A stretch of DNA of 60,876 bases from Girardia tigrina (Eukaryota), in assembly GCA_001938485.1 (NCBI GenBank), contig MQRK01250323.1, forward strand, positions 3,609 to 64,484, given 5' to 3'. Below, piece by piece: positions 1 to 60,367 of this stretch. The notes beneath the pieces are model-generated. The model saw only the letters and a program-made list of their open reading frames with translations. It was not told where the DNA came from and did no database searches. The stretch's first letter is position 1, and each line of letters starts with the position of its first letter. Made by a program: the position numbers and the translations under genes.

Positions 1-166
1 TAAAAATTTGAATATTAAATCTAACTTTAAATAAATTAGTTTCAGATTATAAAAATTAAATATTGACAATCCATCTGGTTAGGAGAGGCACAATCCCAAA
101 TCAACATACAACATTTAAAGATACAAAAACTACAAAAAAACATCCACACACCAAATATTCCTCACA
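1..166 (-). mobile_element. LTR family A, 5' part (runs off the window edge)
   Basis: The reverse complement of 154-166 is TGTGAGGAATATT, identical to the start of the TSD-flanked unit at 58532. It also shares the CTCC..CCAGRTGGA motif with the copies at 6798-7311 and 58532-59062. Confidence 0.8.
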
Positions 167-1075
167 ACCATCATTGTTGGTCTCCTTCCGGATTTAGTTT
201 TAATAGTAAAAACATAATTACTGGGTACTCCCCATTGATTCCTTTTTTCAATGTTCCTGTATTCATTATCATCAATCTTTTCTATATCTGGATTAATAGG
301 TTTCATTTCTTTCAATTTAATAAATGGATAGGAAGGAAGAGGTGTTAAATTTGCAGGTGGATAGTATAAATTTTGATCCAAAGTTTCTTGATTTCTCAAA
401 ATTTGAATTTGATTTTCATATGTCGTTCACTGATTTTTGGATACACCTGTTGATTGAGATTGATCTGTACCGGTTATTTCGTTTCCATTATCATCTTCAT
501 TCCTTCTTTCATCACTCGTTGTACTTGGATCACTAAATTAATCATCTGAATTTGACTCAAATTGTACCTTTTTATTTTTTCCTTTCCGATTTCGACGACT
601 TATATTTTTTACACTGTTTAACTGTTGTTTTTAATGAGTTAATTTCTTTACTATGGTGATGGATAATTAAAAATTTCGCTAAAGTGGGTACACATCCCAC
701 TATCAATTGCCAAGATACACCAACCATTGTATACAATTTATAAGTCGACACAACTTGTGTTAAGACAACTTTTAACAGAACATATATCACATAGACACCA
801 ATAAAGCCTGAACATGCCTGACCAAAGAAAACAAATTTTCCCCAAATCTTTTTTAGAGTATTATATGCTGCTTTTTGATAATAATCAACGCTTAAAAAAT
901 TATCATAATTAACCTGACCAAAACCTCCTGGTGGGACAGTCTCAACAATTTCTGTTATAACTCTTTCTCATTTTGAAGGAAATAATAAATTTCTTCGTGC
1001 ATCCTACACTTCTTCAGGGGCATAAATACCTGCGGTAGACATTTGATCCAAAGATGTAAAGTTTATAAGATAATC
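167..1075 (-). pseudogene. Decayed C-terminal part of a chuvirus-like (class III) viral glycoprotein / env-like gene
   Basis: Minus-strand translation: MSTAGIYAPEEV*DARRNLLFPSK*ERVITEIV...KKIWGKFVFFGQACSGFIGVYVIYVLLKVVLTQVVSTYKLYTMVGVSWQLIVGCVPTLAKFLII. This matches the GIY...FP, W..F..FG..SG..G and TM pattern I recall for chuvirus glycoprotein EVEs. It has about 4 stops, one frameshift near 600, and a long hydrophilic tail. Confidence 0.7.
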
Positions 1076-1170
1076 CAAATCGAAACGTCTTTCAAAAATG
1101 TAAATAACATCGAAAGAGTGTTGAAGGAATGTTTGACCCTGATCGAATGGTGTAAATCGGGCGACCAAAA

Positions 1171-1389
1171 CTACAATGGAATGACGGGAGATAATCTCGC
1201 GAGTGTTAAAACCGTCAAATGGGTCGCTCTAAATGATGACGACAAAACCGACGAGAAATGATTCTTAATCAATCTAATCGATTCCCCGGATCACGTAGAT
1301 TTCAGTGGTGAAGTAACAGCAGCGTTAAGAGTAACCGACGGCGTACAGGCTGAGATAGCGTTGTGCCAGGTGATCATCGAGAGAATATA
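1171..1389 (+). pseudogene. EEF2: Elongation factor 2 fragment (G-domain), intronless and internally deleted
   Basis: [71 protein letters not shown] matches eEF2 [28 protein letters not shown]...VQTETVLRQAIAERI. It has one stop and a ~12-codon deletion. Confidence 0.9.
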
Positions 1390-2918
1390 GCATGTGAGCT
1401 CTTTTTGTGTCTCTCTCTGTCTCGTCCCAGTGTCTCCACGTTCCCAACACCGGAGCCCCACAATTGCGCCGCATTTACCCTCTTGTCATCAACACTAGCT
1501 TTCCGCAGGTGAATGGTGATTACATAATCATTTGTATAATACAGGCTCTATTTGAAAATGTTTAACAGAGAAATTGAGAATAAAAAAACTTATTAATTTA
1601 CGTAAATTATTTGGTGTAAAATTCGAGATATGTAATTAGAGATAAATAAATCTCCCACTCCTCTCGGTTTTTGCTCCGATCTTGTTTATAAATATTCTTG
1701 AAATGGGTGTATTTATTTTTAAATTTTAGATCGTGTTAAATAAAAATCGTATAAAAAGTCGTGTAAAAACAGAATTAGGTGTATATCAAAATAAAAAAAA
1801 TCAAATTATAATTGATTTATTGGGATTAAAAATTAAGCTGTGGAAATGCAAAATTAAAAATTTCTTACGAGTAACTGGAATTATATGCCATTTTTCCCAT
1901 CTTTTCAACAATCAAAATGGTTTGAATAATTTAATTCGAATTTCAATCGTCTTTCATGGCAATGAAAACCGGTTCTTGTAGCACTCCGTTAATGAAAATA
2001 GGCAATTTAGCTTACGAAACTCGATACAAGAATTCCTACTCTAAACTTCTCTGCAATTCAAATATTTTTACCGGCGAAAATTCGGCCTGACAAAATGACG
2101 ACTCTAAAGTTTCAAGTTTGACAAATTTTGAAATCGCTATCGACCCAAAATCAGTACTTATTCTGAAAAATCGGTGTTCGCTGATTTTTGTCACATAGAA
2201 ACTCAACAAGCTGCTTTACACAATGTTTTTCTGTGACGCATCAAACCGGATCACTAATCATTTATCGGGTTTCCTTGATTAGCCGGAAATCGGAATTCAT
2301 TTCACTGAGCACTCTCGCCGACGAATTTCCATCACACTACCGCCACATAATCCATTTGCATTGCAAGTTCACCCGATGAATGTTTAGTAACAGATTAAAC
2401 AAGGAAATCAGTAGTTTTACAGCAAATCTCATGTGACAATTTCGGCTCACTCAGAACCATATTTATTGTTGGTTTGGGAAATCCGAGTCTCAATCTAATT
2501 TTTTTATATCACCGAATGATTTAACAATTGCCTATAACAACCGGATGTTTATTGTACTGAATAATAAATATTTCTCATTTCTTTATATCTAGTTATTTAA
2601 TAAAGTTAATGGAAGATGAAAATACATTCAATTTCTTTTTTCATTACACCTATGATCTATTTTTATTTTATTTATTTATATAAGAAAATTAATCAGTTGT
2701 AGATACTGTTGAATAGTTTTTTTTAATAAAAGACATGTTATAAATTATTTTAATATATCATAGAAGAAAATCGACATTCATTTTTTAATATTTCTGAGAA
2801 ATAAATAATGAGAAAAATCTTGAAATACGTTAAGAAAAAAATTTTTAAAAATTTATTCTGTTTTGTAAAAACGTCATTTTCATTGGCGATCGTTATAATC
2901 GAGATGATATTCTGGCAG

Positions 2919-3131
2919 GACATGTACAAAGCTGCAATAGCAGCTGCGGGCCAGAGAATACGTGCAATAGATCGATCGAGACTGTTCGCTAGGCCACAAG
3001 CGTCCCAGAGAGACAGTCAGAACGAAGAAATAAGGAATCGCATAAAAAAGAACTATATTGAACAGAGCATCCTAACATCGAATCAACTTGTCAATGACTT
3101 AAAGCGTGTGACGACCGACTTTGCTCAACAA
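2919..3131 (+). CDS. SEC20: Sec20/BNIP1 ER SNARE, penultimate exon (5' boundary uncertain)
   Basis: DMYKAAIAAAGQRIRAIDRSRLF...EEIRNRIKK...LVNDLKRVTTDFAQQ is followed by GT at 3132 (phase 0) and splices in frame to 9413. A CAG at 2916-2918 is the putative acceptor. Confidence 0.8.
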
Positions 3132-9412: not shown

Positions 9413-9643
9413 GCAGAACTATCAAAAAACACTCTAAATATTTTGACTGAAGATTCAGAGACCTTATCTCGTACTCACAACGTTTATCAGCAGTTAGATA
9501 CAAATGTTAACAGTGCTACAAGATTGGTTGGCAAGTACAATCGCCGAGAGATATGGGATAAAGTTTTGATAACAATAGCCTTTTTGTTCTTTCTGTTGGT
9601 TTGTGGTTATATTTTTATCAAAAGAGTCAGCAGAAAAATCTGA
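9413..9643 (+). CDS. SEC20: Sec20/BNIP1 last exon (SNARE motif plus tail anchor)
   Basis: AG at 9411-9412, then AELSKNTLNILTEDSETLSRTHNVYQQLDTNVNSATRLVGKYNRREIWDKVLITIAFLFFLLVCGYIFIKRVSRKI*. This matches BNIP1 KYNRRE..DK followed by a C-terminal TM helix. Confidence 0.9.
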   Translation, partial: AELSKNTLNILTEDSETLSRTHNVYQQLDTNVNSATRLVGKYNRREIWDKVLITIAFLFFLLVCGYIFIKRVSRKI

Positions 9644-9776: not shown

Positions 9777-10495
9777 TTAGGTTGATGCAAAAGAAATGTC
9801 GTTTTTTAATCGTCAACTTTAAATGAACATAACTTTCTTTAGAAGTAACTTTATTAGTCAAAATAAAGACCATTACATTGAACACCCTGTTGCCAACGGG
9901 TAACAAGTTTTTTTATTCCAGTGTCATAAAATTCTGGAGGCGATGAAGTCGTCCAAGGCTCTATCAGCATCTCCTTGGTTTTTGAAGCATTTTTCGCGAA
10001 GGAACTGGCTGAAATGTTTGAAAAGATGACAGTCTGTAAGAGAAAGGTCTGGTGAGTACGGTGGGTGAGGCATAGTTTCATATCCCAGTTCGTTTAACTT
10101 CAGTATGGTCTTTCTTGCAAGAAGTGGACGAGCGTTGTCATGCAGAAGAATTGGCCCCTTTTTATTGAGTAATGCTGGCTGTTTTTTGTAGTTCTTGGTG
10201 CATTTTGTCAATTTGCTGACAGTACTTTTCCGCTGTAATTGTTTCGCCTTGTTTTAGGAAGCTGTAATGGATTAAACCGTGTGCGGACCACCAAACAGTT
10301 ATCATGACTTTTTTGGTGTAATTTTTGCTTCGTGAAAGGTTTTGGAGCCTCATTGAAATCCCACCACTGAGCTGAAAGTCGCCGGTTGTCGTATATGATC
10401 CATTTTTCATCGCACGTTACAATTCGATCCAGAAACGGGTCGCTTTGATTACGCAAAATCAGAGAAGAACACACGTTAAAACGACAATTTTTTTC
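9777..10495 (-). mobile_element. 5'-truncated mariner transposase pseudogene (DD34D, cecropia-like)
   Basis: Motifs IVTCDEKW, LLHDNARP and HPPYSPDLSLTDCHLF across frameshifts. TIR TTAGGTTGATGCAAAAG follows TA at 9775. Confidence 0.93.
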
Positions 10496-10504
10496 TAATA
10501 AAAA

Positions 10505-10602
10505 CAATCGCCATTTTTTTCGGGGTGTGGGTGGGTGGGCACCGCGAAATTTAAAAATTGCATATTGGGGTGCCGCTACCTGAAAAAGGTTGGGAAACAC
10601 TG
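10505..10602. mobile_element. Orphan hAT (Charlie/Buster) terminus
   Basis: GGTTGGGAAACACTG followed by ATCTAGAC (NNNTANNN target consensus). Same type of end as 17338-18148. Confidence 0.75.
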
Positions 10603-11593
10603 ATCTAGACTAATATTTAGAATTTATGACATACATGATTTTTCTTTCCCATCAAATAATAAGTGTTTTTATATAAGATTTTCATGCTTATTTCAAATCT
10701 GAAAACGCTTTGATCTATCACATCGTGTTTCAAAAAGGAGGACTTAACCGTTTTTTTAGAGTTTTTCTATACCCTACTTTTATTGCATTCGAAATATCCA
10801 ATATAGTCGCATATCGTAAGTTCACTAATAAAACATATCGACATAGGAATATATAGATGTATAGTACAATTTGATAGTATTGGAAAAGTGAGTGGCTACA
10901 TAATAATGATGGTCTTTATTAACGGTCTACCTTCGTGCATGGGACAGGAATTGGTAAAAAAGGTTACACTGATGCCCCGCAAATGGTCGATGAAATCGGA
11001 ACCGTTGTCAAGGAAACTGGAACCATTCATAAGCGTTGCTGATGAAGCTGGAACCGTTGCCATGTTTACGGGTACCCCTCCGGATCGCTCTTGAGACCGG
11101 AGGTACATGTATCGAATGCCCATTTTTCCCTACTTACTTTCATGCTAAGTTAATGTAAGAGAAGGCACAAATTTGTACATCTATGATATATTCAACGAAA
11201 CTATTGAAGAGGTCAAGGCTCTTTATATAAATATGTTGGGACCAGTGAGTTTTTCCTTCACGTCAGCCTCAGGCCTATTCATTGCACAGGCACCGAGGTA
11301 GGCGAAGGAAAAACTCCTAGAACCTAAAAAACTAAAAATAAAATATTATAATTTATAATTAATTAATTAAAAAACAGAAACTTTTAATTGGTTTTGACCC
11401 TTGGATCCTGTCGATTTGAATATTTTCTTGTGAAAATTTGATGGCCTGATTTGTTGACGTGGGTTTGATCGGAATTTTGGCCCTCTCCGGGTTGTTTCTA
11501 TCTGAGAACTGTTGACTTAGTGATGTATGATTGAAGGTTGACTGTGAGAATTGTCTGCTTGCTGGTTCTGTGAGTTTTTGTGACAAAAGATTG

Positions 11594-11602
11594 GTATAAA
11601 TT
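11594..11602 (+). promoter_or_regulatory. TATA box of family B
   Basis: GATTGGTATAAATT is conserved at ~49955 in copy 2 and lies upstream of the ORF in both copies. Confidence 0.55.
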
Positions 11603-12016
11603 CATCCGAATTTGTGCACTTGATCAGACTTTTCTTTGAATAAATTTTATTTAAAAAAATTTTTGTTTTGTACTTCGGTAATTTTTGGATTTTATTTCCT
11701 TTTTTAAAATTTGATGGAGTTTGGGGAACATCCTCAAGGCTGCCGATCTGTCGATAGATAACAGTATGGGCTTATAGTTCCTGCCGAGACTATTGACCAT
11801 CAGGTAGGGAATATGAACAGGTTGTGAGGTAATTTGATGACTGTCGATCTGTTAATAGATTAACGGTAGGTGCTTATAGTGCCTGCCGAGACTATTGACG
11901 ATCTGGAAGTTTGAGAAAGTCCTTACCAAGTTTCATTTCTAGAAGAGAATTCGTTTCTCTCAGCCTCCATCAATTATTTTTTGTTTTTTTTATTTTTTTT
12001 AATCCACTCATCGTTC

Positions 12017-12795
12017 TGGATAGGAAATATAACGAAAACAAAGAGCAACAAAGAGAACTGCTGCTGGAGTTGCAGAAATGGAAATGCGAATGTGCCAAGC
12101 TGAATGACGAATTAACGAAGAGGACAACCGAATTTGAGGACTACAGAAAGCATTCAAATCCTCTATCAATTCATAAACCGGTTGTGGATAAATATTTATT
12201 GGGACAACAGAAAATAAAGTCCTTGCAAAACGAGGTCACCGAGATGAGAATTCAGCAAAATATGTCCAGCTACTACAAGAAAGTGATCGAAAAAGTCTCA
12301 GAAGAGCAACCGGAAATAATTATAGAAACAGCAAGCAAGATTGGACCAAATACGGAAAAGAAGCCTCTGGTGACGAATCCAAACATTTATGGGTCAATTA
12401 TGAAAGAGTATAAGGTATCATCTTCCTCTTTGGTGCTCAGCAGATCTCAGAAGCGGCGGGAGCAGAGGAAGCGAAAGGCTCAAATGTTTCAACAGGCCAA
12501 TAATGATCTGCAAGCTGTTTTTAAAACCAGTTGTATTGAGGTTGACGTCCAAGATGGAAAGACGGTAATCAGAAATGACACCAGTCAAAGAGAGTCTTCT
12601 GATTTTGATACCTCGCATCAAATTTCGTTGTTTTTTCCAACAAATAATTTCCAAGGGACTATAGAACAACAAGAATGGCTGAACTTTAAGTCAAAACTTA
12701 AAATTCAGAAGGAGAATCATGACCGCCTACAGTTCCGCTCTATCACAACTGGTAAAGGGGAAGAGTTTGTCAATCTATCAGATTTAGATGATTAG
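12017..12795 (+). CDS. Uncharacterised coiled-coil protein inside family B unit (start codon probably mutated)
   Basis: Longest gap-free ORF in the window (open 11911-12795). Its paralogue at 50273-50747 conserves the amino-acid sequence (PLSIHKPVVDKYLLGQQKIKSLQNEVTEMRIQQNMS vs PLSVHKPMVDKYMLSQQKIKALQVEITELRIQQNMS) with many synonymous changes. Confidence 0.75.
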
Positions 12796-25899: not shown

Positions 25900-27578
25900 C
25901 CGTGTTTCTCATATTATAAGTCCTACTCAAAATATAAAACATCCTTCGATTTTTTCAATTTGTTTATAAATTTTTTATATTGTAGACCTATCCCAATAAA
26001 TAAGATCTCGTGAAGTTTTTAATTGATATAAAAATTTTTAAAAAATTAACCGATATAAAACGGCTGAGAGACGAAAAAGATATTCAATTAGTTTTAAAAA
26101 AAGCAATCGTTGAAGAGTCTCGAAATCAAAACCTAACTGCGTATTGTCGAGCAAAGAATCTTTATTAAAGACATATACGCAAATGGCGAGCACAATATTC
26201 CAATATTCTTGAATACAATGAAAATGATGCTTCAAAGAGAAAAGTTGGAGCTGGTAAAAAACCAATGTTCGTTGAATTAGAAAATGAAGTGTTTGAATGG
26301 TTTGCTGAAAGAAGAGCATCAGCTTTTGTTGTTAGAAGGAGAGATATGCAAACTTTTGCCATCTCGATTATTTCTCAATTCAATGTACCTGTTGATAAAT
26401 TCAAGTATCAAATAACTGACTTAATATATTTTTGAAACGGTTTGAATTATCTCTAAAAAAGTCGACTACACTCTTTAAATTAGAAGTTGCCAAAGTAGTT
26501 AGAAGAGCTCTTCCATTTAAAACATATATTGATAGTATTGGTTTTTCACAATATCAACTCTCCAATATTGTTGCTAAGGATGAGACAACTATCTATTTGG
26601 GCCAGTCTTCACTTACTACAATTGATTTTAAAGGGGCATCATCCATATATATTGTATCCACTGGTTATGAAAGCGCTCAAATATCATGTGTTTTGAGTAT
26701 TGATTTAAATGGAAAAAAATTAAGGCCGTTAATTATTACGTAGGGGAATAAAGAAACAATTACTTCTTTACTTGGAATAAATATAATTGAAACAAAATAG
26801 TTTGGGGCACTCAAGAAGTAATAAGACAAAGGATAGAATATACATTTCCTTTAATTTTACGTGGCTCACACCGAGGTTTGCTCATATGGGATTCGGTAAG
26901 TACTCATCGAGCAAAAGAAATTGGTAAATTTTTGGATGAGCGAAGAATTGATCAAGTTATGATTCCATATGGAATGACCGGACATTTACAAACATTAGAT
27001 ATTACAATAAATAAGCTTTTTAAAGATTTTCTTAAAATTGAAATTAATGATTATATTGAAAATAGGATTGAGAGAAATTCAAAAGGAAATTATATTAAGG
27101 CAAGCTTAAGTGAAGCCGTATTATATGTAAAAATTGCTTGGCATAGAGTAAGTAATGAATGTGTTAAAAATGCTCTTCGTGCAGGATATTTCGACAAAAA
27201 TCATACATTTAGTGATTCGGCTATAGCAAAGCATGAAAAATATGACCCATTAATTACACGCGAAATGATATTTTCTAATATCGCGATAAACACGTCTTCT
27301 TTAAATGATTCAAATATTCCAGAACCAGATGAAATGGTCATTTTTAATGATAATTAAACTCGATCTGAAATTAAATGTTTTTTTTAAAATAAAATAAATA
27401 ATATTGTGGCTGAATTCGTAAATACACTTCAATAATTTATATTCTTATTCATATTTTATTAAATTTATATTGTAGACCTATCCCAATAAATAGAACCTAG
27501 TCTACTTTTTTGAAAAAAATTTCTAAAAAAATTATATGGATGACCTTATATAGAGGTCTTATATAGTGATAAACATGG
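25900..27578 (+). mobile_element. Full-length decayed pogo-family transposon
   Basis: TIR CCRTGTTT..CA...TATAAG with TA TSD. Motifs LENEVFEWF, KDET, LIWDSVSTH and GMTGHLQTLDITINKLFK. Confidence 0.92.
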
Positions 27579-29431: not shown

Positions 29432-30318
29432 GGAGTTACAGCATTAATTACCCTAGTGATTTAATTTCCTCTCGAATTAATTTCCCTAAATTAATGCTTA
29501 AGAGAAGAATAGAATTACACATTTTACAGTGAATTAGAAATATTTAAGAAATGGTAGATATAAATTTTCATAAAATATTAAATAAAATACCTTTTTTATG
29601 ATAATAACTCAAAGCATGAAAAGATAAATAAAGAAAATATAAACGATGAAGCAAAAAATCATTTTTACTTAACATTTATTCAAAAAATGACTTTTAAGTC
29701 TGAAATCTGCTTACGACAAATGGCACATTTAGAAAATTCATTATTGTGGACTGCAGTATTGATTATATTTTTTGTGCAGTCATAGCATACGTTTGCATGT
29801 CCACATGAGTGATGTATGCTTCCAGCATTATGTTTATGACAAATCATACATATTATTCTGTTTGTTTGTGAATCTCTGTTCATGCAATCAAAAATACGTA
29901 GAAGCCTTACATTTTGTATCAATGCAGTATTATTTGCAGTCTCACTTGATTCAATCAAGTTTTGTTTAATCAAGTATAGAAGTGAATTTGGAAAATTTTG
30001 AATGTTCAAATGTTTCTGAATAAATGAGAATTTCGATATAGAATTGTTCAAGAGCTGCTGTCTTAAATGGGGGTCTACTGTTAAAAGTGCACTTGGATTT
30101 CTTTGTCTAGATGTCGATCGATCCGTGCCGATTCGAAACTATAATCCACAATTGTATTATTTAATTGAGTTATTGCATTAATTTCCCCAAGGAATTAATT
30201 TCCACAGTGAATTAAATTAACATTCAATAATAAAATTAAATTTATTAAGAAATTAATTCACTGGAGAAATTAATTCACTAGGGAAATTAATTCAGTGGGG
30301 AAATTAATGCGTTACTCC
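29432..30318 (-). mobile_element. Nested MULE-like element carrying a RING finger
   Basis: GGAGTWAC termini with 17-bp AATTAATTTCCC subrepeats and direct flanks TTTTAAT (7 bp). Confidence 0.75.
29680..30051 (-). CDS. C-terminal RING finger (C3HC4, IAP/MDM2-like) ORF fragment
   Basis: CMIC...SCGHANVCYDC...CAICRKQISDLKVIF* retains all 8 ligands and the hydrophobic terminus. No clear ATG. Confidence 0.8.
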   Translation of the reverse strand: MNNSISKFSFIQKHLNIQNFPNSLLYLIKQNLIESSETANNTALIQNVRLLRIFDCMNRDSQTNRIICMICHKHNAGSIHHSCGHANVCYDCTKNIINTAVHNNEFSKCAICRKQISDLKVIF

Positions 30319-32844: not shown

Positions 32845-34115
32845 TTAGGCAAACTGCATCGACCGGAACAAGTGGTAATCAGAAGGAGCTATGTCTGGGC
32901 TATAAGGCGGGTGAGGTAGAATTTCCCATCCGGCATTTTCCAAATAATTTTTGACCGGTACTGCAACATGTGGCCGAGCATTGTCATGATGGAAAATCAA
33001 TTTCTCGTGTCTGGTCGCCCATTCTGGCCGTTTTTCGGCTATTGCTTGCTTCAAACGTATCAATTGTTGCCTGCATAGCTCTCCCGTGATCGTCTGGTCC
33101 GATTTTAACAGCTCATAGATCTCACCCTTCTGATCCCACCAAATACAGAGCATTACCTTCAAACCATGAATATTCGACTTTGGTGTCGATTTGGCTGGTT
33201 GGCCTGGCTTCAAATATGATCTTTTACGCTTTGGGTTGTCGTAATGAATCCACTTTTCATCGCCAGTGACAATACGATGTAAAAACGGTTTCTTTTNNNN
33301 NNNNNNNNNNNNNNNNNNNNNNNNNNNNNNNNNNNNNNNNNNNNNNNNNNNNNNNNNNNNNNNNNNNNNNNNNNNNNNNNNNNNNNNNNNNNNNNNNNNN
33401 NNNNNNNNNNNNNNNNNNNNNNNNNNNNNNNNNNNNNNNNNNNNNNNNNNNNNNNNNNNNNNNNNNNNNNNNNNNNNNNNNNNNNNNNNNNNNNNNNNNN
33501 NNNNNNNNNNNNNNNNNNNNNNNNNNNNNNNNNNNNNNNNNNNNNNNNNNNNNNNNNNNNNNNNNNNNNNNNNNNNNNNNNNNNNNNNNNNNNNNNNNNN
33601 NNNNNNNNNNNNNNNNNNNNNNNNNNNNNNNNNNNNNNNNNNNNNNNNNNNNNNNNNNNNNNNNNNNNNNNNNNNNNNNNNNNNNNNNNNNNNNNNNNNN
33701 NNNNNNNNNNNNNNNNNNNNNNNNNNNNNNNNNNNNNNNNNNNNNNNNNNNNNNNNNNNNNNNNNNNNNNNNNNNNNNNNNNNNNNNNNNNNNNNNNNNN
33801 NNNNNNNNNNNNNNNNNNNNNNNNNNNNNNNNNNNNNNNNNNNNNNNNNNNNNNNNNNNNNNNNNNNNNNNNNNNNNNNNNNNNNNNNNNNNNNNNNNNN
33901 NNNNNNNNNNNNNNNNNNNNNNNNNNNNNNNNNNNNNNNNNNNNNNNNNNNNNNNNNNNNNNNNNNNNNNNNNNNNNNNNNNNNNNNNNNNNNNNNNNNN
34001 NNNNNNNNNNNNNNNNNNNNNNNNNNNNNNGAGGTAACAAATATGAAATGAGGTAACAAATACGAATATAAGGTTATTTCGTAACAAATACGAAATTAAT
34101 TAGTTGTACACCTAA
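32845..34115 (-). mobile_element. Mariner (mauritiana-like) DD34D, 3'-truncated, gap 33297-34030
   Basis: IVTGDEKW, HHDNARPH and HPPYSPDIAPSDYHLF in one open frame. TIR TTAGGTGTACAACT at 34115. Confidence 0.93.
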
Positions 34116-49394: not shown

Positions 49395-49587
49395 ATTACA
49401 AAACCGAATTAATTACATCACCAAAATAATTACAACATTCTTCATTCTATATAATTTGATCGCTCTGACGAATCTTCTCATATTTACAACATTTTTTATT
49501 TTGATGTCATCTGATTGCTCTATTTTTTCCTCGTTCCATGCCATCAAAGGCCACAGAAAAGGTTCAATCCTCTATGAAGCACATTGA

Positions 49588-50910
49588 TGTTAGAATCAGA
49601 AAGTTTTTCCTTTGGCTCGGCCTCGGGCCTATTCATTGCACCAGCACGGAGGCGGTCAAAAGAAAAGACTCCCAAGATCTGAAAACCGAAAAATAAAAAT
49701 GATTATAATTATAAATTATAACATAACTTAATTAAAAAAGAGAAACTTTTAATTGGTTTTGGACCTTGTTCCCATTTGAATTGAATATTTTCTGGTGGGA
49801 ATTTGTTGACCTGATTTGTTGACGTAGGTTTGACCGGAATTTTGGCCGTCTCCAGATTGTTTCTATCTGAGAGCTGTTAATTTAGTTATGGATGATTGAA
49901 GTTTGACTGTGAGAATTGTCTGCTTGCTGGTTCTGTGAGTTTTTGTGACGAAAGATTGGTATAAATTTGTCTGAATTTGTACATTCTACCAGAACTTTTA
50001 TCATCAAATATATTTTTTCAAAAGAATTTGACTTGGTAAATTTTGCCTTTTATTTTTTTTGTTGATGGAGGTTTGGAGATGTCCACATGGCTGCCGATCC
50101 GTCGATGGGTAACAGCAGGTGCTGATAGTGCCAGCCAAGCCTGTTGACGATTTGGTTGGGAAAAGACGTTATTGTTAAACTGAGGATTTGTTTTTATTTA
50201 TCTCCATCAACTATTTTTTATTTATTTTTTTATTTACATCAATAAATTCACTTTATCATTCTCATTTAGTTAATGAATCAACCGATTTATGAAAAAGAAG
50301 ATAGAGGGTTGCTTCATGAGCTTCAGAAAAGGAGGGAAGAAATTGACAAAATTACAAAAGACTTGTCCGAAAAAAATAACAGAGCTCGAGGAATACAGAA
50401 GAATTTCAGTTCCTTTATCAGTACACAAACCGATGGTGGACAAATATATGTTATCGCAACAAAAAATAAAGGCATTACAGGTTGAAATTACCGAGTTGAG
50501 GATTCAACAAAATATGTCGGAGTACCACAAAAAGATCATAAAGAAAATCTCCAAAGAAGTTCCCGCGATGATATTGGAGACTGCTTCTAGAATTGCAGCA
50601 AAGGAACCCATGGATGCGAAAGACCTTACTTCATCTTCAAAAATTCATGAATCTATCACTAAGGAAGATATGATGGCATCGATGACCGGAAAAATGAGCC
50701 GAACTAAGAAAAGTCGCAACTATTCCGACAAGCAGAAACTGAATTGAAAAAGTTTCAAGGTTCAGGCCATTCCGATTCATACCAAAAGAAGCAGAAAAAT
50801 ATCCAGCAAAGTGGCTGTGAATTAGAAGAGATTCCTTGCTTTAATATGAATGAACAACTCATGGCTACAGTGCCTGGTGGTGATTTATTGGATGATTTCA
50901 ATTTTTAATA
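49588..50910 (+). mobile_element. LTR-like family B, copy 2, with frameshifted coiled-coil ORF (50273-50747)
   Basis: Starts TGTTAG and is colinear with 11234-12850. ATG at 50273 and a frameshift in the A-run near 50370. Confidence 0.7.
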
Positions 50911-50984: not shown

Positions 50985-51440
50985 TTTAGCATAAAAAATC
51001 ATAATTTTGAGATTGAGTTTAAGGAAAATTGATCGATTAAATGGAACTGAAAAAGTGAGGCACCGAGTCATCTTCCGAATAGCCAGTCAGTTTTTAAAGA
51101 CAACAAATTAAAAGATGTTGCAACGTTGAAAATTTTAGACGGTTGGGTAGAAAAGGGTTATCTAATCGAGTTCAATGAGAAAGAAATGGGTAAATTGATG
51201 GGATTCATACCGATATTTGGAATACTACAGGCTAATAAGTCCAAGATAAGACCCATTTTTGATTTTAGAAAATTAAATAATTACATGGACATTTATAGTG
51301 GTTCAGCAGATATATTTTTAGAAAAGCTCCGCGATTGGCGACGTAGGGGTTCGACTTTTTCAATGCTTGATTTGTCAGAGGCGTACATGCAGATTCATTT
51401 TCATAAGGAGATGTGGCATTACCAATCTTGTATCATTACA
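50985..51440 (+). pseudogene. Gypsy-like reverse transcriptase N-terminal fragment
   Basis: WVEKGYL...IPIFGILQANKSKIRPIFDFRKLN...LRDWRR...LDLSEAYMQIH. Confidence 0.88.
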
Positions 51441-54400
51441 ATTAAAATGGTATCAAATTTGTATAAAAATATAATTATAATTAAATGATTTTTTAAAAAT
51501 TAGGTGGTAAAAAATCATTATGTTTATTTAAAATTGAAAAAGTGACAATTTGTATTAAAAGAATAATTATAATTGAATGTTTAACCAATTAACGAAGAAT
51601 AAAATATTAAGAAATTTAATTTTAACAATAGATGTACCATTCAAATATTATAAAAGATCTAAAATTATATTTAAGTTAACTGGTTTTAGATAAATAATAT
51701 TGAAATAACAACATTTAAATAATTTAGATTACTAGAAATTGTTGTAAAATACGTTTAAAAATGATTTAAAATAGAACAGTTATTATTTCGATTTTTATAA
51801 TGTATTTTGAAGATTTTTATAAAATAATAAAATCTTAATATATAAATTAACGTAATCAAAAATAAATTCAATTTTAACGTTTTAATAACACAACATGATG
51901 AATTAGCGATTCTGTACAAAGATGATTAGATGAAAATGAAGAATGATAATATTCTAAAAACAAATAAATTGCGACATTTGCAGTTGGTAAGTATAAATAT
52001 GCTAATGTGAATTAAGAATTCCACGAAATTGAATAAATAATTGAATTATTTAAGGTAATGCGATTTAATTAATGAGAAACTTGTTGAATATAAGAAATAT
52101 CATGGAATACCTGATGCTAATGTGCTTGGACTACCAACAGTTCATAACGTAGGTATTATAAACATTAATAAACGTTTTACAATTATCAATAAAACATTTA
52201 CAATGAAGTATGCATTTATAAAAAATGTGTACACAGAATATGTTTTCTAGAAAAGTTTTAATTTGCTCTATGTATGCTATCTTACAAATAGTATGTATCA
52301 AGTAGAGTATGCATAGTCTAAATATTATTTTAATATATATTTAAAAATTTTTATAATCGTTAACCTGCAAACATTGTGTTAATCAAAATTAAAATATTAT
52401 TTGTCTCCCATTATCATAATAACAATACCCGACAAATTTGAACTTTTTTTAGACAAAGAAGTCTTTACCTCTATTATATGCAGAATTTGATGCTGAACAC
52501 GAATATTATAGTCGTTTTTCTCCTATACGTCCAGATTTTTTGTTATCTTATCTTTTTTATTTACTTTGAAAAAGTGCAAAAGTTCGAGGTCGAAAACCAG
52601 TAACACAGTACTTATGACGAAGTAATTTATATTTTAAGGACTGCAAATCATCCAGCAATAGTCAGCCATCATTCTCTGATCTGCTCTTCTTTGATATCGC
52701 TGTTCCAGTGTTTAAAGGGTCTGGTTCACCATGTTCATCTGTGACCTGTTCCATCTCGAATGGGAAAAAGTCAATGTGACTTTTTAGAAAGTGAATTTTT
52801 GGAGACATATTCGCCTTCATCAGTTCAAATGCATCCAGCATTTCTGAAACTATATCTCGGTAATCAGGAGATCGATGTTTGCCTGAGAAAAAAATAAAAA
52901 TAAATTGCAAATACCATTTGATGTTATCTTACGTATGTTGTTCAAATGATTGAAGTATGAAAACATACCAAGAAAGTTTTCCACACCTTTTTTAGCATTC
53001 CAGGCACGCAATTCAACTAGGGGTAATGCTTCTTAAAACTACTGACTTTTCATTAATTTCCTCGTATCTGGCTCAACAAAGACAACATCTTTTATTTTGG
53101 CTGCTGACAGTCGCGGACAAATATTCTTTAGTGTTTTCATTGGCTCATCTTCCGAATCAAAAGCCTTGATGAAAATTTTGAAAATCCCAAACTCGATATG
53201 CAAAGGTGGTAAAATTACCTTTCGAGGTGGTACAAGAGCTTCGTGGAGGACATTTTGCACTCCTGGTGTTCGATTTACACGTTCTGGCCAATGGTTTCTG
53301 CTGTAATGCTGCTGACGCGCTCTGCTATCTCATAGAGAAATAAAACAATTGTACTTGGTGTAGCCACCCTACATCCCAGTGAGCATTCCGATGATTTTTA
53401 AATCAGAACAAACTCTCCATTTGAAGTTTTCGTAATGAATTAGCTCAAATATCAATTTCAATGAGGAGTAGGATTCTTTCACTTTCCTGGAATAGGCCAC
53501 TGGAAGTGCAGGAAACTTGTTGTCCTTATGGAGGAGCACAGTCTTCATACTATCGACACTACCATCAACAAAGAGCCACTAGTCCCATTTCACATTCGTG
53601 TGAATGTTCATTCTCGAAACAAGACTTTCAACTTCATCGCAGTAGACCATCTCATCGCAATCACTTGTTTTGAAGAATTCCACGAACATCTTATCCCTTG
53701 CCCTGTAAGCCGTCGTGTTCGTTTCTGCTACTAAAACACCAAATTGTTTAAGCATGGTTGCAGCAAGATAGGAACCATCTTTCGATAACCCCAATTTTCT
53801 GACAAAACTATCAAGTTGATCTTGGTTGATGGTTTTACATGTGTGTTCCACGTCATTTGGTCTCCAGTTGGCTTCCATGTCATCAGGTGTTTCTGATACT
53901 TTCTCATCGCTGTCAGAAAGAATGTTCAAATCCTTCGGTGGAAATCCTAAAAGGTGGAACAGGAGGCTCATCTCCTGTTTCATATGGTCTTTGTTGGTAA
54001 ATCAGGATAATAAATAAAATGAACTGTCTTTTTGCTGTGACCACGAACACTTGTCAAACAGAAGTGACAATCGTTAACATGATCCATCTGCTCACTCCAA
54101 GCCATTGGATTTGAAAATAGCATTTGTTTCAGTTTTCCAGAGGACCATAGAGAGAGATCAGAAAACATTTCTGGCAGACGCAATGGGGCGCAAATGACTT
54201 GTTCTGGTCTCCTATTTTCATTTTAAAGTAGTGAAAAAAAGGCTTTGGATTCTGGGAGTAATGGATCTCGATGCACCTTTAAATATATATTTTCCACAAA
54301 TATAGCAAAATTTATTGGGATCTTTGACACACTGACGTCTATTCGACATAACCACAAAAAAATATAATTGTTTAAGTATAAATTAGGTAATGATATTAGA

Positions 54401-54535: not shown

Positions 54536-56181
54536 CCGTACTTATCGAACTATAAGTCGAACTCGCATATAAGTCACATCCCATTTTTATTTAAATTTTG
54601 AAAATTAAATTCAACAGTGTATAAGTCGCATATTTTTGTGACTTGAAAACTTGAATCAAAAACTTATTTTAAATTATGCAAATGAAGAAATCATTAAATT
54701 TAAATTAATATTATTTTAATTTTGACTTTAATGATTTTTGTTTTATTAAAATAATTTGAATTTAAAATCTACGTTAAAAATGAAGAAAACAAGAAAATCG
54801 TTTACGGTCGAAAGAAAATTGGAAATTATTGCTTGTGCTGACAAACATGGTAACAGAGAAGCAGAAAGAGAATTCAATATAAATGAAAAAACCATTCAGG
54901 ATAGGAGAAAATTGAAAAACCTTTAAAACGTAATGCCGAAAAAAAGGAAAGCAAAAAGATGGGGATTTGTACATTTGGCCCGATTTAAAAAAGGCCGTTA
55001 AAAGTATATAATTGAGAAAAGGGAGAAAGGGTTTTAAGTTTCTACAATTGATATTAGATTTACAGCGACAAAATGGCAAAATAATGATTTTAATGTAGAA
55101 AATTTTAAAGGAACGAATGGTTGGTGCACAAGATTTATGAAAAGAAATAATTTAAGCATGAGAGTAGTCATTTCAGTCGGAAAATCGTTGCCAGCTGATT
55201 GGGAAGAAACAAAAGAATCATTTTTACTTTTTATTAAAGATAAAAAGAGATATATCAATTTGAAGCATCTTGGGAATATGGATGAAGTTTCTGTTAGTTT
55301 CGATATTCTTGATACAAGGACAGTTGATGAAAAAGGAAAAAAGGTATTCTGATCAAAACAAACGGAAAATGAAAAATATAATTTTACAGTTATAATAACT
55401 GTAACTGCCTATGGAAAAAATTTAAACCAATCGTGATATTTAAAAGACTAACAATGCCCAAAGAAAATTTTCCAAAAGGAATTATTGTTGAAGTCAAGAA
55501 AAATGGATGGTCAAATAGTGAAATAATGAAAAAATGGATACAAAAAATTTGGATAAAAAGAAATGATTCCTTTTTTAAGCCAAAATCACTTTTAATATTC
55601 GATTCTGCTAGATGTCATATTACTGAGGAAGTTACAAATGAAGTCAAAAAATATTCTGAACTTGCAGAGATCCCTACTGGCCTCACTAAAAGCCTTCAAC
55701 CACTTGATCTATCAGTTAGCAAATCGTTCAAATCTAAGCTAAAGATACATTGGGAAAATTGTTGTCACATTTATAACAAAAGGGGGAAAATCAAAATATG
55801 CGATTGGATTGTTAAAAGCTGGAAAGATGTTACACCACAGTGTATTAAAATGGATTTAAGAAAGCAGGGATTCAAACTTATGATGAAAATATCGAAGGTG
55901 ATGATGATTCAGAAATTGAAACTGGAAGTGAAGATAAAGATTTACAAGAAATCCAAACGGAATTTTTGCACATTTTCGAAACGTTTGAAATAATAGATGA
56001 TGAAGATTTTGATGGATTCGAGGAAATCGAATAATCTTAAAATAAAATTATTGGTTTTGTTTTTATATATTGATGTTTTTATTTTTATATACGTCGCACA
56101 CGCGTATACGTCTAACCACTTTTCTTTAATTTTCATACGTTTTTTTCATATAAGCCGCGGTTTATAGTCTGATAAACACGG
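54536..56181 (+). mobile_element. pogo (POGK-like, Brinker DBD) transposon, decayed
   Basis: TIR CCGT..TTATC..ACTATAA with TA TSD. HGNREAEREFNI, GNMDEV, IFDSARCH and LQPLDLSV motifs. Confidence 0.92.
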
Positions 56182-56362: not shown

Positions 56363-57905
56363 CAGCCGAACCTCTATTTAACGAAGTGGAATGGACCAAA
56401 AAAATACTTCGTTAAATAGAGGTAAATCTTTTTTTTTCTATGCGATGTCATTGGCCAGGTTGATAGCTATTCGCTAATTTAATTGTAATTGAGAACCCTC
56501 GATAGTTGTGTTTTCAGTGAAAGAATAATGCCTTGATCGCAGGGTTGAATTATTGAGGTGGTGATTGGTTGAAGATACACCAATTCTACAGCTGCAAGTC
56601 CCATTGGTATACAATGACTGCTGCAATTGTCTACAAAAATAAGAACTTTGCGGTTAGATGTATTCATCTTTTGATCAAACTTGTGCAACCACTCAGTCCA
56701 GATTGATGAAGTCATCCAAGTTCGTTTGTTGCATTTGTAGTCAACAGGTAATTGTGACTTTTTCCAGCCTTTGAAGCATCGAGGATTTGACTCTTACCAA
56801 TCACCAATAACTTTCGTTTATCTGTTCCACTCATGTTTGCACAGACTAGCACTGTTAGACTAATCTTGCTTTTCTTTCCCCCAGAACATGTTTCTCCTTT
56901 GAAGGCAGAGTGTGAGATGAAAGCAGTTCGTAGAAGAAACTTTTTTCATAAGCATTGTATACGTCTTCAAGCGAATAGCGATGTAGATAAGATGGAAGGA
57001 TGTTCTTAACCCAGCATTCAGTAGCCGGTGAATCTGCTGATGTAGATTCTCCACACATGGCTTTGAAAACTAGCCCGTGTCTCCTTTGAAACTTCTCGAT
57101 GTATCCATTATTTCCTTAGAATTCTTTCATACTAAGACTTTCAGCAAATTGCTTTGCCTTGGTTGAGAGAAGTGGCCCATTCACTGGAACATTTTGGGAA
57201 CGCTGCTGAGTAAACCACAAAAGGAGAGCTTCTTCCAAGTCATCGCTAGTTACATTTTTAATGCGCTTTAACTCTGAGCCACCAGATGTTTGGGACCATT
57301 GCGCCTGTATAATCGTTGCGATATAATCGACGATAGACTGCTTGCTGGTATACCATATTCCGAAGCAATGTCAACTTTTCTCTTCTTAGCATTGCACTGA
57401 CATGCAGAAGTAAAAAAAAATTATTAAATAAAAGGGAATTTTACTGATAATAGTTCTTTATAAACAAATTATTTAATGTATTCAATAATTTCCTTTTTTT
57501 AAATAATAATTTTTTTTACATATTTTAAATACAAGTATTAAGAAAAAAACTATATTAAGAAAATAAATGTGTGTTTTAAAAAAATAATGTTTTTAACGCA
57601 AATTTACTTTTCAAAAATACATTTCTTTTTCCGAATTTGATAATCGGTAATTGCTTAAAAGTTTTGAAATTTTCAAGTATTTAAAATATCTGAAATTTTT
57701 CAACGCGGCATTGTCTTCGTTATACAGAGGTTAATTTACACCTAAAATTTTTGATCGGTACAGAAAATGCTTTGTTAAATAGTGGTTTTCGTTAAATGGA
57801 GGTTCGTTAAATAGAAGGAGAAATATATGAGGATTTCTGCCCTCTTAGTCGGGACAAAAGATTTGCTTCGTTAAATGGAGACTTCGTTGAATAGAGGTTT
57901 GACTG
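56363..57905 (-). mobile_element. Tigger (TIGD4/6-like) transposon, decayed
   Basis: TIR CAGYCRAACCTCTATTYAACGAAGT with TA TSD. FVDNCSSH and TTSIIQPCDQGII motifs. Confidence 0.92.
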
Positions 57906-58492: not shown

Positions 58493-60367
58493 TGTAATAT
58501 AACGATTTAAATCATTTGTTTAAATCGTTCTTGTGAGGAATATTTTAAATTTGGTATGTTGAAATTGGTTTGTTGAATTTGGTATGTTGAGTTTAGTATT
58601 TGGAAATGTGTTTCTCCCACCCAGGTGGAAAATTAATATTTTAGATGTTCACGATAAATAATTGTTCGAGTATAATTTGCATTTTAAAGTACAACATAAG
58701 ATATTTAAAAACTTTAAAAATATTAAATCGTTTCAAATTTTCATATTAAAATTGAAATAAAGTAAATAGTTTTAACTAAGTTTTGAATTAAATAAATGTT
58801 CTTTCTTTCTATAAAATAATTTTTTAAATAAAATTAATATGTAAATAAAATTATTACTAAAATTACAAAATTCGAACTTTAAAAATAAAATCTGAAAATA
58901 ATGAAAAATTTGTTCGAATAGTTGTTTATTAAAAAACATTAACTAAAAGTTATCAATTTAGGACGATGTCGAATTACGAAAGTTTTGCTGAGAGTTGTCC
59001 AAAAGACAATTTTAATTGTATTGAAAATAAAAGTTCGAAAACCCATGTTGGTGTTCTTAATAGTTCTATTGCAGAAAACGGAGTTTATTTAAAATACAGA
59101 TTTATGAAGCTTCGTTAATTCTTTTTGATTTAGATTTAACATCACAAGCTATCGTGGCATGAAAAAATTGCAATTCGCGGATTCGGTGCCTCGGTTTGAA
59201 AGAACCAGTGATTTCAATGTCTGGTGTCGGAAATTCGAATCCCCTGCGGCAATCTGCGAGATCGACCAAATATCAGCACTGCCAATGATGCTAGAAGGAA
59301 GAGCATTCGAGCTTTTCGATGGGTTGCCAAAGAAAGATCAACAAGATTACGGGGAAGTAAAGATGCTGCTGTCAGAAGCATATGGACCGGATCCTTGGGG
59401 GGCCTAAGAAGAATTTCGCACCCGATAGCTCCGGGAGGGAGAATCAACGGAAGAGTTCGTGGCAGCATTACGAGCATTTATTGCGGGTCTCTCGGAAAAT
59501 GTTTCAAAACATTTGGTCTCAGAATCGACCAGAAGGACGGATAGACTACCGGAGTTGCTTCCGGTTGCCCGTGCGCTTCTTTGGATTAATCAATCGGATG
59601 CGGTACCATCAATACCAGTGGCTGCGATCAATGAGAATGGTACCATTAATCAAGTGGTAGCGATGGCGACGAACCCCCATCCGGATGTCAAAAAATCCCA
59701 ATGCTACAAATGTGATCAAGAGGGCCACATCAGACGAGAATGCCCGAGAGAACAAGCCCTGATAAATGAAGTAAGACTTACCGGACGGGTTAAATATTGT
59801 TTAGCGTGTGGTTGGTTAAGGGCTTACGAAGTTTTCGTGACACCCGCACCGCCATAAACCTGTACAACAAAATGGAAACGCGCAGCGGTAACATGGAAAA
59901 ATTTACCGCAACAAGTGGAAGTCAACGGGATGTCTAATCACATCAGCCATGTGCGTAGGGCACCACCAGAGGATAAAACTCCGGAGGATGACGAGATTAA
60001 CGATAGAAGAGACATATTAATAATAATAATAACGTTAGTTTTCTAGAAGCAGACAGCAGCAAACTCGAGAGAGCAGAACATGAAGAATCAGGCGGTGAAT
60101 CAACATCAGAAAGGCGACCTCGCAGGACGATCCGCAGACCGGGCTCGTTACGACGATTACAATTGCACAGGTGCGGCGGCAGTGGTCAGTTCCAGTACTC
60201 CCAGATGTTCGGACTGTGTCTGTCTTTGCGCCTTAAAGAAAGGAGGGCGTGTAATATAGCGATTTAATTCACTTGTTTAAATCGTTGTATTGCAGAAAAC
60301 GGAGTTTATTTAAAATACAGATTTGTGAAGCTTCGTTAGTTCTTTTTGATTTAGATTTAACACCACA
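58493..60367 (+). mobile_element. Internally deleted gypsy-like LTR retrotransposon (118-bp LTRs, gag remnant)
   Basis: TSD TTATG. 3' LTR 60250-60367 follows the PPT AAAGAAAGGAGGG. The 5' LTR 58493-59146 is split by an insert. gag 59159-59760 contains the CYKCDQEGHIRREC zinc knuckle. pol is largely deleted. Confidence 0.93.
58532..59062 (+). mobile_element. Solo LTR family A nested in the 5' LTR (531 bp)
   Basis: 5-bp TSD GTTCT; the empty site is visible in the 3' LTR. Confidence 0.9.

Follow-up and report, generated by a model that had tools for sequence, protein, structure and literature searches.

A decayed chuvirus-type glycoprotein fragment in a flatworm genome is probably debris of a planarian-type Ty3/gypsy retrotransposon

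Bases 167 to 1078 of the stretch of Girardia tigrina DNA analyzed here (60,876 nt of contig MQRK01250323.1, referred to as the window) very probably represent a dead remnant from the interior of a Ty3/gypsy LTR retrotransposon that is multi-copy and of the Burro/Smed_errantivirus kind, with an LTR of a second family, family A, inserted into it later. On the features tested by sequence comparison, the fragment appears to belong with the planarian gypsy elements that carry an env in frame. It is ordinary genome debris of a published kind of retrotransposon and not a new virus fossil. An earlier note, made from the letters of the window alone, had described a chuvirus-like glycoprotein fossil abutting an LTR and offered two origins for it, an env-bearing retroelement or an endogenized RNA-virus gene. 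The features of the locus are listed in Table 1.

Table 1. Features of the env locus and the solo copy of LTR family A
Feature	Positions	Strand	Basis
End of family A LTR (TGTGAGG...), cut by window edge	1..166	minus	Similarity to two copies
env cytoplasmic tail and putative linker to aspartic protease	167..627	minus	tblastn with P0034
C-terminal ~165 codons of HSV/gB-type (PF24664) env	575..1078	minus	Pfam; identity of relatives
Repeat truncating env on its 5' side	1082..1387	plus	EF-2 pseudogene fragment at 1172-1387
Solo LTR of family A	58532..59062	plus	5-bp target duplication GTTCT, read from the sequence

RESULTS

The fragment matches the C-terminal quarter of a class III glycoprotein

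The translation of minus-strand bases 1078 to 575 (168 codons, with X put in place of the stops at 1006-1004 and 970-968) matched the Pfam profile PF24664, Monjiviricetes_fusion, with an E value of 3.7e-27 and 95 bits against a cut-off of 27, which bore out both the decayed frame and the class III (chuvirus/gB-like) reading of the earlier note. The stop-free open reading frame at 967-572 gave an E value of 5.6e-19 by itself. The match spanned positions 465 to 630 of the 653 in the profile, its C-terminal quarter, and took in the last part of the ectodomain together with the membrane-proximal region and transmembrane helices, with the N-terminal three quarters missing. A hydrophobic peak of 2.18 was found in this part (Kyte-Doolittle, window of 19), followed by a weaker stretch. 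The fossil had been placed at 167 to 1075; its location was correct, and its start had to be moved, since env homology begins on the 5' side at about 1078 to 1081. Four stops and one frameshift interrupt the copy between 167 and 1078, and we infer that it is dead and would encode nothing functional today.

The fold was examined on P0004, a 350-residue metagenomic fragment, and not on the window fragment. The predicted model (pLDDT of 87) was compared with the PDB, where the top matches were all herpesvirus gB (best E value of 9.3e-6, TM-score of ~0.38), and with viral models, where chuvirus-type G came first (E value of 2.9e-17). A profile search of the PDB sequences found gB only at E values of 0.16 and above, which is not significant. 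According to the model, the ectodomain of this close relative is predicted to fold like herpesvirus gB.

The closest relatives are env-pol polyproteins

A phmmer search with the env fragment produced 288 matches, the best 150 of which were listed. The best 23 of the 288 had E values of 1.1e-15 or lower, and 13 of these extended more than 60 amino acids (aa) beyond the match; in all 13, an aspartic-protease motif was observed in frame within 600 aa. The other 10 end at most 31 aa from the match and hence are uninformative on the protease. Pfam supported the protease in 12 of the 13 at an E value of 0.001 or lower, with P0018 at 0.0018. Four relatives (P0011, P0015, P0156, and P0158) carry env, protease, reverse transcriptase (RT) and RNase H, as well as integrase, in one open reading frame, and their Pfam models are typical of Ty3/gypsy. 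With a protease downstream in every informative best relative and a full pol in four, the env-bearing retroelement, one of the two origins first offered, is the one that we favor. Identity to the window was 77% over 61 aa for P0004, 76% over 76 aa for P0009 and 43% over 151 aa for P0156.

Gag features were found upstream of env in P0014 (a zinc knuckle) and P0021 (Retrotrans_gag, E value of 0.00017), and P0019 exhibited a weak Bcl-2 match in the same position (E value of 0.00096). P0158, of 4,844 aa, carries ankyrin repeats (weak matches); the Bcl-2 and ankyrin matches came from the more distant relatives. A hydrophobic stretch lies immediately before the env start in P0006, P0011, P0013 and P0156. 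When the window was searched with seven relatives, no gag, RT or integrase of the env element was found in it, and the Ty3/gypsy class of the fragment is therefore transferred from its relatives. A word-index protein search gave 1 match among 188 candidates, and of 52 pattern matches obtained with P0004 in a metagenome scan, none was confirmed.

Two further observations concern the relatives themselves. In seven of the nine long ones (P0158, P0014, P0006, P0156, P0013, P0015, and P0021), the stretch from env to RT contains between two and four protease-like D[ST]G motifs, and Pfam marks up to seven protease-like stretches in P0158. P0011 (HBK71150.1), a complete env-PR-RT-RH-IN polyprotein, has been deposited under a Flavobacteriaceae MAG, on a contig of 9 kb, with the label of hypothetical protein; the DNA is probably of animal origin and ended up in a bacterial bin.

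The second origin on offer was a viral glycoprotein gene, endogenized from a negative-strand RNA virus (Jingchuvirales or other Monjiviricetes) and without retroelement ancestry. Such a gene would account for a match to a Pfam family named after these viruses and for the chuvirus-type G proteins heading the viral-fold matches of P0004. An Atlas search also found PF24664 clusters nearest, mostly arthropod, although its recognition of 1959 lies under its 2300 mark and is weak. However, among the best 150 of the 288 matches, stand-alone chuvirus-type G proteins were more distant relatives than the env-pol polyproteins: the first named viral G listed, that of Wufeng shrew chuvirus 2 (P0032), had an E value of 6.6e-12 and 30% identity, against 6e-38 and 43% for a polyprotein. 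A tree was built by quick search from 152 columns and 107 rows, comprising the window and those 106 matches, out of 153, that span the fragment, with the four closest short matches excluded and the row labels assigned by rule. The window grouped within a set of 21 rows (SH-aLRT of 97) that includes every one of the 14 rows with a protease downstream, and the 31 stand-alone G rows all lay outside it. The 460-nt tail of the fragment, homologous to an env-protease linker as described below, also argues against a viral gene. Since the closest relatives are gypsy-type polyproteins and not stand-alone viral G, we consider an RNA-virus fossil extremely unlikely.

BEL/Pao elements are marked by the families Peptidase_A17, DUF1758 and DUF1759, and a 5-bp target duplication, as observed for LTR family A, is compatible with them. 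The earlier note had drawn an analogy to the env-like genes of mosquito BEL/Pao elements, and chuvirus-like glycoproteins do lie inside such elements, of which Anakin is an example (PMC7642597). None of the three marker families was detected in any of the 27 relatives scanned (E value of 0.001 or lower), which matched RT_RNaseH, Integrase_H2C2 and gag-asp_proteas instead, and the planarian relatives have been published as Ty3/gypsy (PMC13524379). With the closest relatives being of gypsy type and their env fused upstream of the protease, the analogy was not supported, and derivation of the fragment from a BEL/Pao element is hardly credible.

The tail corresponds to a linker between env and protease

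A frame change near position 600 separates the env part from the tail, whose frame of 153 codons is interrupted by 2 stops (540-538 and 429-427); the remaining two minus-strand frames have 10 and 21. By tblastn, residues 43 to 197 of P0034 aligned to bases 627-166 with an E value of 1e-10 and 30% identity; over bases 426-167 identity was 43% over 70 aa (E value of 2e-13). The transmembrane part aligned with P0034 as well, at 49% identity over 53 aa. The link was made by this one relative of the 156 searched, which ends in the protease, without RT. Its catalytic Asp is residue 209, and since the alignment stops at residue 197, 12 codons earlier, the tail is best read, by homology, as the linker from env to the protease, ending at the first strand of the latter. 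The "long tail" that had been noted running into the LTR is thus a real coding remnant reaching base 166, but it represents a linker and not the 3' end of an element.

The adjoining LTR was most likely inserted later

Bases 166-1 were compared with two further copies in the window, scoring 46 against 58532-59062 (500 shuffles: mean of 24.4, maximum of 38) and 53 against the copy from 32582 onward (maximum of 39 in 500 shuffles). Both scores lie above all 500 shuffles, confirming that family A is a true LTR family. The copy at 58532-59062 is a solo LTR that sits inside the left LTR of another element, the interrupted LTR matching 60250-60367, and family A is thereby seen to insert into other retroelements. 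The host of this insertion is a small LTR element (58493-60367, plus strand) with 118-bp LTRs, a 5-bp target duplication (TTATG) and a purine tract before its right LTR; it carries a zinc-knuckle gag remnant at 59429-59854 (E value of 9e-7), without pol. In host DNA run X1, 64 contigs departed from the LTR at position 166 into unrelated flanks (agreement of 0.41).

Because the tail corresponds to the linker and stops 12 codons before the catalytic Asp of the protease, the LTR at 1-166 sits inside pol, and, as the earlier note had suspected, it most likely came later, by insertion into the coding region of the protease. Bases 167-171 would then be one copy of the target site. The same note had remarked on the lack of a clean polypurine tract (PPT), and indeed no purine tract abuts the LTR, the nearest being a 9-nt run that ends 14 nt earlier. 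We do not take this run for a PPT, as it forms part of the coding frame and its homologue lies in the linker of P0034. That the LTR shares the strand of env, as stated there, is not established: which end is 5' cannot be read from a solo LTR.

An alternative is that the fragment comes from the same gypsy env-pol element but that the LTR is that element's own 3' LTR, an internal deletion having removed pol and the PPT. The coding frame does run straight into the first base of the LTR, as this would predict. Against it, the junction lies 12 codons before the catalytic Asp without an abutting purine tract, family A is seen to insert into another element with a 5-bp duplication, and the summed contig depth is far greater for family A (2.7-5.0 million) than for env. 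A weak observation points the same way: nine contigs of run X2 leave at 188 into one shared sequence (median of 10 letters, longest of 27), which differs from the LTR where it passes 166-161. We regard an own 3' LTR as very unlikely and retain the later insertion.

An EF-2-derived repeat truncates env and points to a flatworm host

The pseudogene of EF-2 within the repeat on the 5' side of env contains one stop and a 12-codon deletion and is 64% identical to P0166 over 84 columns (E value of 8e-26). Contigs of run X3 and a 991-nt contig of run X5, aligned over 387 nt, follow env to 1078 and then continue into other sequence; the cut at 1078 is therefore particular to the window copy. Five weak tblastn rows suggested env homology above 1081; we discarded this extension, as the closest relatives do not reach beyond 1078.

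In the host DNA runs, numerous diverged contigs span 1092-1341, with a summed depth of ~11,000-49,000. As they fill the deletion with decayed EF-2 letters that differ between contigs, it seems that a piece derived from EF-2 has multiplied into a repeat family.

The earlier note had considered the host a probable flatworm. In the variable loop of EF-2 before FLINLIDSP, all 13 named flatworm rows scored 16.5-40.5 and the 19 other named rows scored 10 or less. The scoring covered 118 of the best 120 matches, and two further rows scored 82 and 75. The best two named matches by E value were a fungus and a nematode (59% and 51% coverage), and their loops scored -1 and 10. The loop thus sides with the flatworm rows, in agreement with a flatworm host, on this one pseudogene marker. 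The G+C content of the window is low, at 20-37% per 2 kb outside N runs, and together with the env relatives it suggests that the flatworm is a triclad.

Other features of the window

Two plus-strand exons of a host Sec20/BNIP1 gene, at 2916-3131 and 9413-9640, are 48% and 74% identical to P0160 (1 relative among 106 candidates), and a minus-strand RING finger exon lies at 29683-30138 (zf-C3HC4_3, E value of 2.9e-8). Two plus-strand copies of a repeat, at 11233-12305 and 49587-50557, are 65-78% alike and contain a coiled-coil-like open reading frame without a Pfam match; the second is followed by an RT remnant at 51051-51485 on the plus strand (RVT_1, E value of 0.022). Decayed mariner and pogo/Tc5-type DDE transposons occupy 9854-10609, 26169-27354, 32845-34095, 54750-55990 and 56479-57370. 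A short repeat at 1542-1742 reached a summed depth of 227,000-423,000 in runs X1 and X2.

The env family is present in many copies

Contigs from 4 of the 24 listed runs (X1, X2, X3, and X5) were compared with the window. Summed contig depth over env was 13,000-129,000 in X1 and 107,000-418,000 in X2, with reference depths of 491 and 661, respectively, at 1810-1876, suggesting that the env family is multi-copy, although a summed depth is no copy number. Across runs under three coded organism labels (X1/X2, X3, and X5), the env contigs were 95-97% identical to the window, with 17 differences in 521 nt for X3 and 18 in 387 nt for X5. Such similarity might be taken to mean that the subfamily still is, or was until recently, an infectious enveloped retrotransposon and has crossed between species of freshwater flatworms; the presence of up to four protease-like motifs between env and RT in its relatives might in addition hint at unusual processing of the putative env-pol polyprotein. 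We think this reading unlikely, as the run labels may denote close congeners or mislabelled or mixed samples.

DISCUSSION

Planarian elements of the proposed kind have been described before. Chary and Hayashi (2026) reported GAG-ENV-POL Ty3/gypsy elements with an HSV/gB-type env in Nematoda, Bryozoa and Platyhelminthes, and tabulated nine flatworm elements, six of them in Schmidtea mediterranea (PMC13524379). Smed_errantivirus_1 to 6 have 45, 215, 3, 8, 1 and 1 intact copies, respectively (PMC13524379). They resemble our fragment in the type of env, in its position before pol and in the flatworm host, and they differ from the window copy, a 0.9-kb decayed fragment, in being intact. Because the env sequences used for comparison cover the N-terminal ectodomain, which is absent from the window, the link goes via P0004; likewise, the window lacks the part with the cysteines that define the planarian ENV cysteine-bridge configuration C1a. 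Counted by eye, P0004 agrees with the Smed_errantivirus_2 env in 34 of 52 and 24 of 38 residues (~64%) and with that of Smed_errantivirus_1 in 23 of 38, while the published envs of Smed_errantivirus_1 and 2 are 63.7% identical to each other. At ~64%, the group of the fragment is probably a sister subfamily of Smed_errantivirus rather than the same one.

Arkhipova and Yushenova (2019) described the planarian gypsy element Burro, with an env in frame between a gag/BCL2 region and the protease, matching mononegavirus fusion glycoproteins, and decayed fragments in Dugesia japonica (PMC6431247). Burro and abundant gypsy elements are also mentioned in PMC11410931. Burro/GYPSM1 of Dugesiidae are giant gypsy elements with long LTRs; Burro in the strict sense exceeds 30 kb and has accessory BCL2, BIR, MATH and ankyrin domains in one polyprotein. 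The likeness to our fragment consists in the env upstream of the protease, whereas the size, LTRs and accessory domains lie beyond the 0.9 kb found in the window.

The remaining comparisons are more distant. Anakin, a mosquito BEL/Pao element (Dezordi et al. 2020), likewise combines a chuvirus-like class III glycoprotein with an LTR retrotransposon, but it differs in superfamily and host, and the env of the fragment would lead in frame into a gypsy-type protease. Glycoproteins of the Jingchuvirales have the Pfam family and fold class in common with the window env and its relatives, but they are only ~25-30% identical, stand alone at ~650 aa with short tails and lie on the other side of a well-supported split in the tree. 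The Jingchuvirales EVEs of arthropods are of this stand-alone kind (Dezordi et al. 2023, PMC10084718). The earlier note had drawn attention to a non-arthropod host, which is unsurprising given that planarian elements of this kind are already in print (PMC6431247, PMC13524379).

In elements of this kind, the HSV/gB-type class III env follows the gag region in frame and precedes the protease, RT, RNase H and integrase, and each intact element would make one polyprotein. The hydrophobic stretch before env may act as an internal signal sequence that sends env into the endoplasmic reticulum, and the transmembrane helix would leave the tail or linker and pol in the cytosol, where one or more proteases of the element could release the enzymes. 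Env may let the particles pass between cells. The copy in the window would have decayed after its insertion, losing everything upstream of 1078 at the junction with the EF-2-derived repeat, and the family A LTR would have been inserted at the start of the protease.

The fragment adds one decayed copy to the published class of planarian enveloped gypsy elements. When a PF24664 or "chuvirus glycoprotein" match is obtained in a flatworm genome, the sequence downstream should be checked for a protease before the match is called an RNA-virus fossil.
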